From Candidatus Uhrbacteria bacterium (GTDB lineage Bacteria > Patescibacteriota > Patescibacteriia > UBA9934 > GWF2-40-263), in NCBI GenBank assembly GCA_016188495.1, contig JACPHU010000002.1, forward strand, positions 111,466 to 175,465: a stretch of 64,000 bases of DNA, given 5' to 3'. The stretch's first letter is position 1. Every line of letters begins with the position of its first letter. Below, piece by piece: positions 46,761-54,761 of this stretch. The translations under genes were made by a program, and so were the position numbers. Under the pieces are notes generated by a model, which saw only the letters and a program-made list of their open reading frames with translations, ran no database searches and was not told the origin of the DNA.

Positions 46761-46795
46761 AATGTAGCGATCAAAATAATCGGGTTTAATCATTT

Positions 46796-47170
46796 ATGAC
46801 TTTAAAAAAACGAATTGAAATATCTGATTTTACAGCTATTTTTTCTCTCTCGCTTATTTTAGTTTGGATTTCTCATTTTTTATTTTTTACATTGACAGGG
46901 TCAAATGATATTAAAGATATTTTTGCCACAGGAGGTTTTCCCATAAGGTCTTTTTCTTATCCAGGTCCAGCGATGGGTAATGATCATGTTCCTCCCCAGA
47001 TGTGGGGAGGATTTGCTCTGAATATTCTTTTTTGGTTGTTTGTTTGTTCTTTTCTCTTTCAATTTTTTCCAGAAAAATATAAGTCAGAAAAAATAAGACG
47101 CATTATTTTTTGTAGCGCTATCATTCTTACTCTTTTTGGAAAGTTTTATTTTTTGTTGAAATTTGATTAA
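46796..47170 (+). CDS. Small hydrophobic hypothetical protein
   Basis: ORF with 3-4 TM segments; AT-rich. Confidence 0.4.
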   Translation: MTLKKRIEISDFTAIFSLSLILVWISHFLFFTLTGSNDIKDIFATGGFPIRSFSYPGPAMGNDHVPPQMWGGFALNILFWLFVCSFLFQFFPEKYKSEKIRRIIFCSAIILTLFGKFYFLLKFD

Positions 47171-47183
47171 AGAGACTTAATAA

Positions 47184-47207
47184 GTTCGAATCCCTGTCTA
47201 TACACCA
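47184..47207 (+). repeat. Orphan tRNA 3'-end fragment (GTTCGAATCCCTGTC...ACCA) in inverted orientation relative to tRNA-Gln
   Basis: 15/15 nt identical to the T-arm/acceptor 3' strand of the adjacent tRNA-Gln, followed by 'tatacacca'. There is no upstream sequence able to complete a cloverleaf. Confidence 0.55.
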
Positions 47208-47243
47208 AAGAAAAAACAACCGTCAATGACGATTGTTTTTTCT

Positions 47244-47317
47244 TGGTTCCCGGACAGGGATTCGAACCCCGATACCCAGGACCAAAACCTGGTGTCCTGC
47301 CTTTAGACGATCCGGGA
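47244..47317 (-). tRNA. tRNA-Gln (anticodon TTG), CCA encoded
   Basis: Manual fold: acceptor TCCCGGA/TCCGGGA, anticodon stem CCAGG/CCTGG with loop TTTTGGT, T-stem CGGGG/CCCTG (one G-U). Confidence 0.8.
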
Positions 47318-47328
47318 GCGTAGTGAGC

Positions 47329-47357
47329 GTACAAACAAGATCAGATCTTGTTTGTAC
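47329..47357. promoter_or_regulatory. 29-bp perfect palindrome GTACAAACAAGATC-A-GATCTTGTTTGTAC upstream of tRNA-Gln
   Basis: Perfect 14-bp arms with a 1-nt centre. Too tight a loop for an RNA hairpin, so more likely a dimeric protein-binding or cruciform site. Confidence 0.5.
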
Positions 47358-47368
47358 CGAACGGAGCG

Positions 47369-47490
47369 ACCGGATCTGGCTCGAAGAGACAGATCCGGGA
47401 TGTAAACGTATTCCTAGGATCTAACGTTCATCAGATCCGGGATGTAAGCTCATTGCTAAATGGCGAGATCTGTCTCTCTAGACAGATCCG
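47369..47490. promoter_or_regulatory. Array of five CAGATCCG(G)/CCGGATCTG motifs in both orientations (iteron-like)
   Basis: Copies at about 47370 (inverted), 47388, 47431, 47465 (inverted) and 47481. They form two additional 9-bp-stem inverted repeats. Confidence 0.5.
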
Positions 47491-47586
47491 TGAGCTTTCA
47501 CACTCACTGCATGTATCTTTGACCACGAAATAGTACCTAATCTCCCTTTTTCTTTCAAGAGCAGGAGATTAATTCTTTTTCCCTTG

Positions 47587-48420
47587 TTAATCAATGAATG
47601 TTTGTTCGAAAAGGATTTCTTTGCCATAAAAAAGTGAAGCTAAACCAGAAAGATCTTCGCGATTTGTTGTAAAGTACGTCCGTTCTCCTGTTTTAGATAA
47701 TCGTTCATCTAATTCCACATGTCTTTCCAGATAAGAAGCGAGACTGACGGCCGTGATGTCGCCTTGTGTCAAAAGATGGATTCCTGTTGGCAAATGAGCA
47801 CGAAACAGAGAAGAAACCAGGGGATAGTGGGTACACGCCAACAAGACCGCTTCTACTTGGGGATCTTGAATCAATAATTTTTGAACGCACTTTTTAACAA
47901 GCTGATCAGCCCGGTCACTCGTGTGTTCTCCTTTTTCAATCAGATCCACAAGATCAGGACAAGCGATTTGGGTCACTTTCATTTCCGGACGCAACTTATA
48001 GAGTTCATGAATATACGCTTGTGATTCAACAGCGGCAGGAGTGGCAAAAATTCCAACGCGTTTATTGTGTTTGGCCAAATATTCCGCTGCTGGACGAATA
48101 ACCCCTAATACGCGCCGATCTGGAAATTCAACGGGAAGAATTTCTTGTTGGATACGTCGCAACGCTTGAGCGCTTGCTGTATTACAAGCGATCACAACCA
48201 AAGGACATCCTTTTTTCAAGAGAAAACGAACACCTTGAAGGGTGAATTCAAAAATTTCCTCTTCTGACCGTACTCCGTAGGGTGTCCGTGCATTATCCCC
48301 AAGATAGATTGTTGAATAATGGGAAAGTCGTTCGTGAATAGGTTTAAGAATACTTAAACCCCCAAAACCAGAATCAAAAACACCAATCATAGTTTGCACA
48401 GGATAGCGAAAGTCTTGCAT
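47587..48420 (-). CDS. murI: Glutamate racemase
   Basis: 'IGVFDSGFGGLS' and 'VIACNTAS' motifs. Start placed at MQDFRY (the ORF-track ORF extends to 48645). Confidence 0.8.
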   Translation of the reverse strand: MQDFRYPVQTMIGVFDSGFGGLSILKPIHERLSHYSTIYLGDNARTPYGVRSEEEIFEFTLQGVRFLLKKGCPLVVIACNTASAQALRRIQQEILPVEFPDRRVLGVIRPAAEYLAKHNKRVGIFATPAAVESQAYIHELYKLRPEMKVTQIACPDLVDLIEKGEHTSDRADQLVKKCVQKLLIQDPQVEAVLLACTHYPLVSSLFRAHLPTGIHLLTQGDITAVSLASYLERHVELDERLSKTGERTYFTTNREDLSGLASLFYGKEILFEQTFID

Positions 48421-51329: not shown

Positions 51330-52595
51330 TTATTGTAATAACAACGTGGCTAATCCCAGAAAGAACAGAAATCCAAGGACATCGGTAGCAGTGGTAATAA
51401 AGATCGTGGCTGATGTGGCAGGATCTTTTCCTAATTTTTTCATCATGAGCGGAACGAGCGTTCCAAAAAAAGCAGAGACAACCAAATTAGTAATCATGGC
51501 CAGACCAAGAATCAAAGCAATAAGAACGTCATGGTTAAAGACCATAACAATCACCGCCACGATTAAGCCGTTAATCAGTCCGTTGGTAAATCCGGCAATC
51601 AGTTCTCGTTTAAGCGTTGGCCACGCGCTTTGCAGATCAATTTGATTCATGGCAATTCCACGGACAAGAACAGCGAGTGTCTGAGTTCCAGCATTTCCTC
51701 CCATTCCGGCAACAATAGGCATATAGACGGCGAGGAGCACGTATTTACTAATCGTATCTTGAAATAAGCTTACAATGGAAGCTGCAAAGAATGCTGTTCC
51801 AAGGTTGATCATGAGCCATTTGTATCGAAAACGAATTTTACTTGGCGCTGAATCAAGAACGGATTCTTCTTTGTCGATTCCTGCAAACTGATAAAGGGAA
51901 GAAGCTGTTTTGTCATCAAGATTCCTTAAGACGGAGTCAGCATAAATGATTCCCAACACATTGCCTTCCCGGCTCAAAACAGCGACTTTATTGTGTGACT
52001 GTTTTTTGAATGCTTGGAGCACTTCCTCTCGTGAGGCTTGGTGTCTGATGGTGGGTAGAGGTCGAACAAATGTTTTGATGGGATCGGTGGGGGAACCGAG
52101 CCCAAGTGCATGGCCAGGGAGCTGACCAATCAGTTTTCCCTGTCTCATGACAACTATGGTAGGGAGGCGTCCTGTTTTTTGTTCATGCGTTTTAAATCGT
52201 CTTGCGGCCTGTGCGATGGTATCCATTTCCTCTATTTGGATGTAATTGAGATTCATCAAACCTGCAGCGGTTTGGGGATCAAATTCAGAAAGAAAGGTGA
52301 TTTGTTCCTGGAAGGTTTTATTCAGGGCAGTGATTGCATTTTTTTGTTTGGATGTTGGAAGAAGTTGAACAAGATCTGCCGCCTGGTCAGGATCAAGGTG
52401 TTCAAGGATATCCGCGAGCTCATCCCGAGAAAGTTGTTTTAACAAATCTCGAGTCACGTCTTTGCTTAAACATAAGAGCACGTTCACTCGTTCATCGTGA
52501 GAGAGATTCAAAAAACGTTTGAGACGATCTTTAGGATGAAAGCTGATATCACGAACAGCTTCAGGGCATTGGATATTTGAAATGGGTTCAGACAT
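51330..52595 (-). CDS. mgtE: Magnesium transporter MgtE
   Basis: MgtE N-domain, CBS pair and C-terminal TM bundle. Start chosen at MSEP (the ORF-track TTG start at 52628 abuts a terminator). Confidence 0.75.
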   Translation of the reverse strand: MSEPISNIQCPEAVRDISFHPKDRLKRFLNLSHDERVNVLLCLSKDVTRDLLKQLSRDELADILEHLDPDQAADLVQLLPTSKQKNAITALNKTFQEQITFLSEFDPQTAAGLMNLNYIQIEEMDTIAQAARRFKTHEQKTGRLPTIVVMRQGKLIGQLPGHALGLGSPTDPIKTFVRPLPTIRHQASREEVLQAFKKQSHNKVAVLSREGNVLGIIYADSVLRNLDDKTASSLYQFAGIDKEESVLDSAPSKIRFRYKWLMINLGTAFFAASIVSLFQDTISKYVLLAVYMPIVAGMGGNAGTQTLAVLVRGIAMNQIDLQSAWPTLKRELIAGFTNGLINGLIVAVIVMVFNHDVLIALILGLAMITNLVVSAFFGTLVPLMMKKLGKDPATSATIFITTATDVLGFLFFLGLATLLLQ

Positions 52596-52632
52596 AAGCG
52601 TTAAAGAAATTATAATGTATTCAATCAAAACA

Positions 52633-54266: not shown

Positions 54267-54614
54267 TCATTTTGTAAAACTATTTATCAGGCCGGATAAC
54301 AATCTCGAAACTTCTTCTAGATTTGTTTTCAAACCAGCTAGTTCTTTATTTTCGATTATTTTTTCATCACAAAGTAATTCCAATAAAGAGGCGCATTCAA
54401 AAACTGATCCACGAGAAATGACGTAAAAATTCTTACGGTCTTGTTTAGATAATTTACCTGTACCTTCCGCGATATTTATGACCATACTGACAGAGGCTCG
54501 ATAAAGTTGGTCTCGCAAAAAAGCATTGGTCTTTTTATCAATCAATATTTTCTGAATTTTTGCGTTTACTTCTTTGGCTTTTTGGTAAGCTACAAGTTTT
54601 TCAAAGTCGAACAT
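54267..54614 (-). CDS. Four-helix-bundle protein (TIGR02436-like, the family often found in rRNA intervening sequences)
   Basis: 'FEKLVAYQKAKEV...INIAEGTGK...SRGSVFECASLLEL' resembles that family. Confidence 0.6.
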   Translation of the reverse strand: MFDFEKLVAYQKAKEVNAKIQKILIDKKTNAFLRDQLYRASVSMVINIAEGTGKLSKQDRKNFYVISRGSVFECASLLELLCDEKIIENKELAGLKTNLEEVSRLLSGLINSFTK

Positions 54615-54684
54615 AATTCTGGAAAATACTAGATTCTAGAATCTAGAGTCTAGTAACTAGATTCTAGTCCCGCCAAAGGCGGGC

Positions 54685-54761
54685 TGGTCGGGCTAGTGGG
54701 ACTTGAACCCACGGCCTCCAGACCCCCAGCCTGGCGCTCTAGCCTACTGAGCTATAGCCCG
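54685..54761 (-). tRNA. tRNA-Pro (anticodon GGG), CCA encoded
   Basis: Manual fold: acceptor CGGGCTA/TAGCCCG, D-stem GCTC/GAGC, anticodon stem CCAGG/TCTGG with loop CTGGGGG (G37), T-stem GTGGG/CCCAC. Confidence 0.75.

Follow-up and report, generated by a model that had tools for sequence, protein, structure and literature searches.

We analyzed the surroundings of a tRNA-Gln gene in a 64,000-nucleotide stretch of DNA from a Candidatus Uhrbacteria genome (GCA_016188495.1, contig JACPHU010000002.1, positions 111,466 to 175,465; hereafter the window, numbered from its first letter). The gene is preceded by a cluster of short repeats and a palindrome and followed by an inverted fragment of its own T-arm, here called the orphan. 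We compared the locus with loci or contigs of relatives, which carry L-numbers (L001, L004 and so on). The explanation that we favor, at a probability of roughly 0.5, is a normal tRNA-Gln unit at an insertion hot spot, where both flanks are footprints of insertion and decay built of tRNA ends and hairpins.

The tRNA-Gln locus

The tRNA-Gln(UUG) gene lies on the minus strand, runs from 47317 to 47244 and encodes its CCA end (ARAGORN; Rfam RF00005, 56.3 bits). It is the A7-U66 allele, begins with TCCCGGATCG, ends in CCCTGTCCGGGAACCA, and is identical in sequence in L001, L004, L177, and L185. Upstream of it lies murI (47587–48420, minus strand, stop codon at 47587–47589), which encodes a glutamate racemase of 277 amino acids (aa) and served as our synteny anchor. 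The protein is 100% identical to a Candidatus Uhrbacteria glutamate racemase encoded on a 190-kb contig, and the genomes closest to the window are metagenome-assembled genomes of Uhrbacteria. On the plus strand, the neighbors of the tRNA gene are an rlpA-like gene, ftsE, ftsX, and an open reading frame (ORF) of 124 aa. The order murI, tRNA-Gln, convergent ftsX is kept in L004, L005, and L187, and murI is also found next to tRNA-Gln in L006, L007, L085, L086, and L196.

A conserved promoter and a proposed structured 5′ leader

A sequence scan located a sigma-70-type promoter of the tRNA-Gln unit, TTGAAA-17-TACTAT, just past the murI stop (47530–47558, minus strand), with no terminator between it and murI. 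Its form, TTGxxx-17-TAxxxT, is conserved at the equivalent place in L001, L004, L005, L006, L007, L085, L086, L187, L196, L177, and L185. Judged from the position of this promoter, transcription of the tRNA-Gln leader would start near 47523 and the repeat cluster would be transcribed. A preliminary description of this DNA, made by a model from the letters alone, had correctly placed the array upstream of tRNA-Gln, as the gene is on the minus strand, and had likened it to a recombination, replication or operator region. Because the array lies downstream of a conserved promoter, we regard it instead as the ~206-nt structured 5′ leader of pre-tRNA-Gln (47318–47523, minus strand), which fills the space between promoter and tRNA +1.

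The repeated motif, CAGATCCGG, is present in three exact copies (47370 on the minus strand, 47390 and 47432 on the plus strand) and in one copy with a single mismatch (47483, plus strand), all within 47370–47491. The preliminary count of five is reached only if the half-motif GATCTG at 47467 is included. No further exact copy exists in the 64-kb window, and when one mismatch is allowed the window holds 20 matches against 12.2 expected. It had been overlooked that CAGATCCGG is the reverse complement of the first bases of the tRNA-Gln (TCCCGGATC). The latter sequence occurs three times in the 64 kb, each time on the minus strand and within 134 bp: at tRNA +1, at 47400, and at 47442.

These copies of the tRNA 5′ end ("pseudo-5′ ends") belong to three minus-strand units that we call hairpin-1 units. 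Unit 3 (47366–47405) contains the pseudo-5′ end TCCCGGATCTGTCT at 47387–47400, with the exact 9-mer TCCCGGATC at 47392–47400, which forms the 5′ arm of a 13-bp hairpin (47370–47398). Repeat scans and folding defined the other two. Unit 2 (47412–47447) has the pseudo-5′ end TCCCGGATC (47434–47442) and a hairpin at 47417–47438, and unit 1 (47462–47497) has a GGATCTGTCT/AGACAGATC hairpin at 47467–47488 whose 5′ arm matches tRNA positions 5–17 at 12 of 13 bases once an extra T is removed. Unit 3 is common to the window, L001, L004, L177, and L185; units 1 and 2 are extra copies of the window only and are missing from L001 and L004. Hairpin 2, found by an inverted-repeat scan 11 nt upstream of tRNA +1, is the 29-nt perfect palindrome of the preliminary description (47329–47357, minus strand), which we recovered with 14-nt arms, 100% complementarity and a 1-nt center. 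It is bordered by the conserved sequences TCCGTTCGG and CTCACTAC.

Leader hairpins were judged by folding each sequence separately; counting pairs in MAFFT alignments was dropped because bulges shift the arms out of register. In every hairpin-1 unit the pseudo-5′ end forms the 5′ arm of a hairpin in these folds, and the leader RNA of the window folds with z = −6.3 (L177, z = −7.9; L004, z = −3.8). In the predicted fold of the whole pre-tRNA, the leader forms a closed domain of its own and the cloverleaf is kept. Two Logan contigs of the window strain (L173 and L174) come from independent short-read assemblies that end at window positions ~47546 and ~47515, at the edge of the leader array, and these breaks fit heterogeneity in repeat number or in the population.

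The leader in relatives

The tRNA-Gln leader is ~130–330 nt long in the window, L001, L004, L177, and L185, and only about 10–30 nt long in L005, L006, L007, L085, L086, L187, and L196. The extra leader DNA is restricted to genomes with the A7-U66 allele (5′ TCCCGGAT), namely L001, the L004 type, L177/L178, and L185. Their leader core has a common order of TCCCGGAT, hairpin 1, TCCGTTCGG, hairpin 2, CTCACTAC(NN), and the tRNA, and a length of 82–98 nt (166 nt in L185). There are three hairpin-1 units in the window and in L185, and one each in L001, L004, and L177. Hairpin 2 always folds and always occupies the same place, with a stem sequence that differs from lineage to lineage (L004, L001, L177, L185). 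What precedes the tRNA is not an ordinary promoter shared by all relatives, which was one outcome that would have removed the integration-scar interpretation of the preliminary description, but a probable leader insertion specific to a clade.

In L177 the leader core is bracketed by an exact 17-nt direct repeat, TCACTACATTCCCGGAT, at a spacing of 98 nt. The repeat stops at tRNA position 8 and runs 9 nt into the leader. Separately, the spacers between the three leader hairpin units of L185 (L185 5370–5510) are built of short repeats such as GTCCACA and GCCCATA.

Several other identities of the array were considered and rejected. The window array is rich in GATC, and the equivalents in L177 and L185 (GGATATGGCG) have none, so a Dam/GATC or restriction-site cluster does not account for it. 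A CRISPR-like array was ruled out by the shortness and variability of the repeats. No ribozyme, riboswitch or small RNA was recognized, as Rfam 15 returns only the tRNA above threshold and, at E up to 10, generic hairpin matches. A dispersed repeat of the REP, MITE or BIME kind was discarded because blastn-short gave no further copy in the 64-kb window or at unrelated loci. A period of 82–84 nt would be suggestive of a decayed tandem tRNA-Gln upstream, but by eye there is no similarity past tRNA position 13.

The orphan and the terminator on the 3′ side

The orphan (47184–47207, plus strand) was delimited by sequence comparison. It starts with an inverted copy of tRNA-Gln positions 53–67 (GTTCGAATCCCTGTC), continues with TATAC in place of CGGGA, and ends in ACCA. 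The 15-nt exact match announced in the preliminary description is indeed present, at 47184–47198, and a gap of 45 nt separates this match from the tRNA 3′ end. Chance, the other outcome that would have removed the scar interpretation, does not explain the match: GTTCGAATCCCTGTC occurs exactly twice in the 64 kb (47184–47198, plus strand, and 47253–47267, minus strand, in the tRNA T-arm), only 0.18 matches are expected even with up to 2 mismatches, and a fragment of the same kind recurs in relatives. We also rejected an origin from an element in the tRNA-Thr or tRNA-Gly that lie upstream on the plus strand, since their 3′ ends are unlike the orphan, and an origin from a convergent second tRNA, since relatives have none there and ARAGORN and Rfam find none on that strand.

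The orphan's 20-mer had no metagenome match in public collections. Its sole match in a viral contig (L084, IMG/VR) is an unrelated, high-GC, tRNA-like 3′ fragment at L084 340–420 (...GGGTTCGAATCCCTGTCTATACCCCA), where no tRNA is called; it is probably a coincidental fragment of the attachment-site (att) type.

Between the orphan and the tRNA lies a predicted bidirectional intrinsic terminator hairpin (47208–47244, AAGAAAAAACAACCGTCA/TGACGATTGTTTTTTCTT) with 18-nt arms that are 94% complementary. A simple scan had missed it because the loop has fewer than 3 nt. On either strand the hairpin stands between an A-run and a T-run, so that the features expected of a Rho-independent terminator, an 18-bp stem and a T-run, are found in each direction, and the stem continues into the ACCA of the tRNA. 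A homologous terminator is found at the native site in L195, in L001, and in L085, there after a distal repeat. L001 homology resumes at 47204, and the orphan is thus at the right-hand end of a window-specific segment. The ACCA at 47204–47207, which had been read as the end of a tRNA, is better understood as terminator stem that pairs with the ACCA of the tRNA, because the same pairing is found in L001, which has no orphan.

An inverted-repeat scan further showed, as had been overlooked before, that the orphan, the hairpin at 47208–47244 and the tRNA 3′ end make up one long imperfect palindrome (47184–47267). It consists of the T-loop fragment, a 5 × 5-nt bubble, ACCA with the terminator stem, the loop, and the mirror image, and its 32-nt arms (78% complementary, with an 18-bp core) end in the tRNA T-arm. 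In read-through RNA it is predicted to fold into one long hairpin (z = −8.5).

Inclusion of all or part of the tRNA's (GGA)ACCA in the terminator stem was seen in the window, L001, L007, L085, L086, L177, and L187; L004 is an exception, with a stem that ends at AAGAAAAAA. The 3′ acceptor strand could therefore have two competing partners in the primary transcript, the 5′ end of the tRNA and the arm of the terminator.

Gene-less inserts beside tRNA-Gln in relatives

L085 and L187 each carry a gene-less insert after tRNA-Gln that is bounded by perfect 21-nt direct repeats of tRNA positions 56–76, spaced 190–191 nt apart. The two inserts are 73% identical over 223 nt. Within each, at 91 nt from the copy in the tRNA itself, lies an inverted 13-nt copy of positions 53–65, which precedes a small hairpin and the terminator. 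The inverted fragment follows the T-arm of its own host, being GAATCCCTG in L085 and GATTCCTTC in L187. The window orphan aligns with this fragment in position, orientation, and starting base (G53), and the two are probably homologous. The window shows no counterpart to the small hairpin, the GC-rich portion or the distal repeat of the L085 and L187 inserts.

A second type of insert is found in L086 and L177, where the inverted copy covers positions 58–68/69 and two conserved hairpins lie between it and GGAACCA with the terminator. In L177 this 3′ hairpin unit is in tandem, as a 189-nt duplication (L177 4349–4657). In L178, which belongs to the same species, the site of the duplication is an N-masked gap, which suggests an assembly difficulty or a polymorphism.

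Strain-variable DNA and integrase islands

No two of the strains examined have the same DNA between FtsX and the tRNA (the window, L001, L175, L176, the L004 type, L185, L187, and L196). Strain comparison delimits it in the window as a 424-bp segment from FtsX to the tRNA terminator (46780–47203, plus strand) that holds the gene of the 124-aa membrane protein (46796–47170). In its place L001, whose ftsEX DNA is 95% identical, has 1.76 kb of DNA that holds two other ORFs. The contents of L175 and L176 are different again in each, other small ORFs occupy the site in L185, L187, and L196, and L005 has an empty site. The strain-specific DNA thus starts at the 3′ flank of the tRNA and has an empty counterpart in a relative, as is seen at att scars.

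An integrase is found at the same tRNA in a sister strain. In the L004 type (MurI 88% identical), eight contigs carry an integrase beside tRNA-Gln. The island starts 34 nt after the tRNA and encodes a 395-aa tyrosine integrase (PF00589, E = 2.6e-33), an HTH_17 protein, and type I restriction–modification (R-M). The far end of this island (attR) lies beyond the L004-type loci, which break off within it, and the FtsX contigs of close strains are too short to include it. The integrases of L194 and L195 (94% and 56% identical to that of L004) also abut a tRNA-Gln(UUG), and a 23-nt direct repeat of tRNA positions 54–76 encloses the ~10.1-kb L195 island. Paired 11-nt repeats that resemble arm-type sites (T[ATG]TGGGCAGTA) are present in the L004, L194, and L195 islands.

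The cargo of these sites is varied. A complete type I R-M system (HsdR, HsdS, HsdM) is found in the L004-type island of L165, L166, and L194, as defence cargo in a genome of the candidate phyla radiation (CPR), and the L194 island also holds an AAA_15/AAA_21/DUF4435 ATPase. Between ftsX and its mini-insert, L187 has a gene for a PhdYeFM-type antitoxin and an 82-aa ORF (L187 3974–4447), again as hot-spot cargo. A PADLOC scan of the cargo ORFs gave almost no matches. The 124-aa ORF of the window belongs to a small membrane-protein family with 94 clusters of homologues (E ≤ 1e-3), where it frequently makes up the C-terminal portion of a longer protein, and has only a sub-threshold LysE match in Pfam. 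Kinship with the 124-aa Bflower-like protein of the L004 island was considered and dropped, as the two show no similarity. We did not detect relatives of the L004 integrase, or the hairpin motif of the mini-inserts, in viral contigs.

Elsewhere in the window, an MgtE gene at 51330–52628 (minus strand) stands where the L004-type sister has tRNA-Pro(CGG) (L004 2367–2443). This exchange, between the DUF3850 and CobA/NUDIX genes, is the second case in which strains differ at a tRNA. Within 54267–54761, a protein of the 23S_rRNA_IVP family (PF05635, 115 aa) is encoded immediately downstream of tRNA-Pro(GGG), and the spacer at 54640–54690 is a run of CTAGA/TCTAG palindromes. An apparent internal deletion of tRNA-Gln in assembly DNBC01000007.1 (L168 5650–5660) turned out to be an NN-masked gap and not biology.

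Discussion

The tRNA-Gln locus as a probable insertion hot spot

The hot-spot explanation, in which the tRNA gene has long been a target of site-specific insertion, is the most economical one and builds on what can be seen directly: the anatomy of the locus, its synteny, its variability between strains, and the direct repeats and integrase of relatives. In the relatives, exact direct repeats that cover the identity block of the integrase tie the 3′ side well to recombination of the integrase type, and in the window this link is only indirect; for the 5′ leader module we infer an insertion origin from the direct repeat in L177, with published upstream integration as a precedent. The integration scar proposed in the preliminary description therefore holds in so far as tRNA-Gln is an integration hot spot in relatives. 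It does not hold in its classical form, as the orphan is inverted and there is no displaced direct repeat.

The locus could have taken shape and could work as follows. The ancestral form of the leader would be a single ~80-nt insert of two hairpins, with the leader/tRNA junction duplicated at its flanks, and in the window strain the first hairpin unit would have multiplied in tandem. Transcription would begin at the conserved promoter just past murI and pass through a leader of three hairpin-1 units, each opening with a copy of tRNA positions 1–9 to 1–13, and the 29-nt hairpin. In the RNA, the pseudo-5′ ends would be locked in local hairpins, so that the true acceptor stem can form, and RNase P would presumably take off the whole leader. 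On the other side, the orphan would be the outer part of the left arm of the terminator and a relic of the fragment carried by the ~190-bp inserts of relatives, whose 21-nt repeat spans the block from T-loop to CCA that a resident tyrosine integrase family also uses. The remainder of the insert would have been replaced in the window by strain-specific DNA, the segment with the 124-aa ORF. Most likely, the modules act today only as RNA or DNA hairpins, the 3′ module being an over-extended bidirectional terminator.

A number of observations weigh against this explanation. The orphan is inverted and is not the product of a simple att duplication. In the window we found no second direct copy of the tRNA 3′ end (TGGTTCCCGGACAGGGATTCG, ≤ 3 mismatches) and no integrase (tblastn with the L004 integrase gives only noise at E > 2); an integrase gene, which the preliminary description had proposed to look for, lies beside tRNA-Gln in the L004 type, L194, and L195. 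T[ATG]TGGGCAGTA is at chance level in the window, with none near 47 kb. The readable integrase islands (L004 type and L195) have no inverted T-loop fragment, and the mini-inserts are accordingly not tied to that integrase. No integrase or island was found on the 5′ side of tRNA-Gln at any locus read, so that the case for an insertion origin of the leader module comes from the direct repeat. The pseudo-5′ copies of the window clade all share an extra T after C9, so that they arose from one another and not from repeated integrations. Finally, the leader hairpins are kept, with changed stems, across a clade with 76% FtsX identity, which could mean selection for an RNA function.

Alternative explanations

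That last point leads to the alternative that survives best, in our view a possible though doubtful one, in which the leader is a selected functional RNA element that sets the rate or order of pre-tRNA-Gln processing or protects the 3′ end of the murI mRNA. The pseudo-5′ ends might then serve as acceptor decoys or as a toggle, the long hairpins as RNase III sites, or the leader as protection after RNase P cleavage. Besides the retention of the module across the clade, this would account for the conserved linear motifs TCCCGGAT, TCCGTTCGG, and CTCACTAC, for stems that vary and yet pair, and for strong folds with a closed leader domain beside an intact cloverleaf; also in its favor is the lack of a terminator between murI and the tRNA promoter. 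However, most relatives with the same synteny do not have the module, and it turns over fast, hairpin 2 being wholly different between the window and L001 despite 95% ftsEX DNA identity. The copy number varies, DNA palindromes can stay symmetric without selection on RNA, and nothing in Rfam matches.

Fold-back or template-switch errors of replication at a highly transcribed tRNA gene, without a site-specific recombinase, are an unlikely source of both flanks. Here an existing hairpin, in the terminator or in the leader, would prime copying of the opposite arm, and the palindrome would grow into the tRNA ends. Each module does consist of a tRNA-end segment with an inverted copy close behind, and the reach of the terminator palindrome into the tRNA is graded, from 0 nt in L004 through 4 in L001 and 7 in L086 and L177 to 24, with a bubble, in the window. 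In L187 the arms agree with the allele of the host itself, and the tRNA would, judging from the G-rich plus strand, be transcribed head-on to replication. Such errors do not explain the exact 21-nt and 17-nt direct repeats that bound the inserts or the 73% homology of the L085 and L187 inserts beyond their tRNA-derived parts, and simple fold-back copying would not be expected to swap a 5-nt block (TATAC for CGGGA).

It is still less probable that a miniature non-autonomous integrative element uses the inverted T-loop fragment as a functional component, with folded single-stranded DNA that mimics the T-arm target. In such a strand an att core and an inverted copy 50–90 nt away would pair into a duplex, which might resemble the folded attP of phage CTX or integron attC sites. 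The geometry of L085 and L187 is identical (core, inverted copy at 91 nt, distal repeat at 190–191 nt), the fragment changes along with the T-arm of the host, and neither direct repeat shows a mismatch. Against this, the inserts are not linked to any recombinase, free or tandem copies and viral-contig matches were not found, and the window has no distal repeat.

An iteron array, operator, oriC or dif site bound by a replication or recombination protein, as first suggested, can be set aside as very improbable: the repeats are clustered in both orientations beside a perfect palindrome, but GC skew is positive across the whole 64-kb window with no change of sign, DnaA boxes are at chance (7 against 6.7 expected, with none within 47100–47600 and hence no cluster), the palindromes have centers of 1–4 nt and arms of 9–14 nt without conserved sequence, unlike a dif/Xer site (28 bp, two 11-bp arms, 6–8-bp center, at the skew switch of the terminus), the array lies inside a transcription unit downstream of its promoter, and what is conserved between species is only the hairpin form and the TCCCGGAT seed and not the repeat sequence, with GATC lost in L177 and L185.

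Comparison with known systems

tRNA genes are classical landing sites for genomic islands, and to our knowledge integration at tRNA genes has been little documented for CPR/Patescibacteria. In other bacteria, tyrosine integrases are known to use the T-loop sublocation of tRNA genes as well as an upstream (D-loop) sublocation, and decayed elements that consist of att sites only have been described (PMC4383910); Islander-type islands and mycobacteriophage Ms6, with attB in the T-loop of tRNA-Ala, are examples (PMC4383910, PMC1762012). The hot-spot explanation agrees with T-loop integration in that a sister-strain integrase lies directly beside the tRNA-Gln 3′ end, the identity block from T-loop to CCA is 21–23 nt in relatives, and variable DNA adjoins the tRNA. 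The window itself departs from it: integrase and direct repeat are lacking, and the sole copy of the tRNA 3′ end stands in inverted orientation directly next to the terminator. Genomic islands at Klebsiella arg2 are reported to integrate upstream of a tRNA gene, at the D-loop sublocation. They resemble our 5′ flank in the copy of a tRNA 5′ end, reaching the D-stem/D-loop, that is left upstream of an intact tRNA; unlike there, an upstream integrase or island is absent, and the L177 repeat ends at position 8.

Cis-mobilizable elements (CIMEs) are integrative elements in decay: attL and attR are retained, the integrase is gone, and tandem accretion can occur (PMC5704250). The inserts of L085 and L187 conform to this description, with both att-like direct repeats around gene-less DNA, and so, formally, does the L177 leader insert with its 17-nt repeat; units are also multiplied in tandem in the window, L185, and L177. 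The window has the inverted fragment only. The inserts are moreover far smaller (about 80–190 bp, roughly the size of attP), are built of hairpins, and one type lies 5′ of the tRNA; their mobility is putative.

The 3′ hairpin resembles bidirectional Rho-independent terminators in its G+C-containing stem, its A-run and T-run, and its place between the tRNA and the convergent ftsEX and 124-aa ORF. It differs from a plain terminator in that the palindrome runs 24 nt into the tRNA, through ACCA, bubble, and T-arm, which termination does not need. In neisserial intergenic mosaic elements, short units alternate with dRS3 repeats that are used as phage att sites. Our locus would resemble them in its short units with a recurring att-like motif between them, at an intergenic site prone to recombination. 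Here, unlike there, the motif is the tRNA's own 5′ end, the array lies in a transcription unit, and there are no dispersed copies in 64 kb.

Implications

No simple model of a dead scar accounts well for the perfect direct repeats or for an inverted fragment that varies together with the host T-arm. It is tempting to speculate that in this clade tRNA-Gln is flanked on both sides by undescribed, gene-less hairpin mini-elements of ~80–190 nt that are bounded by duplicated tRNA ends, the 3′ type carrying the co-varying inverted T-loop. They might be moved in trans or as folded single strands, and their 5′ versions might be co-opted or tolerated in the leader through sequestering of the decoys. 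We put this forward only tentatively and consider it unlikely to hold in full.

Whatever the nature of the inserts, the locus is a live hot spot: each strain is different, and a sister strain carries an integrase island with type I R-M. The att-sized inserts and inverted tRNA fragments that such a hot spot leaves behind can be misread as an origin, an operator, or a pseudo-tRNA. If the mini-inserts are not mobile, they are instructive but ordinary recombination debris. If they are mobile, they would be the smallest integrase-type elements known. The copies of the tRNA 5′ end in the leader would offer a natural test case for how well a pre-tRNA tolerates decoy acceptor strands.

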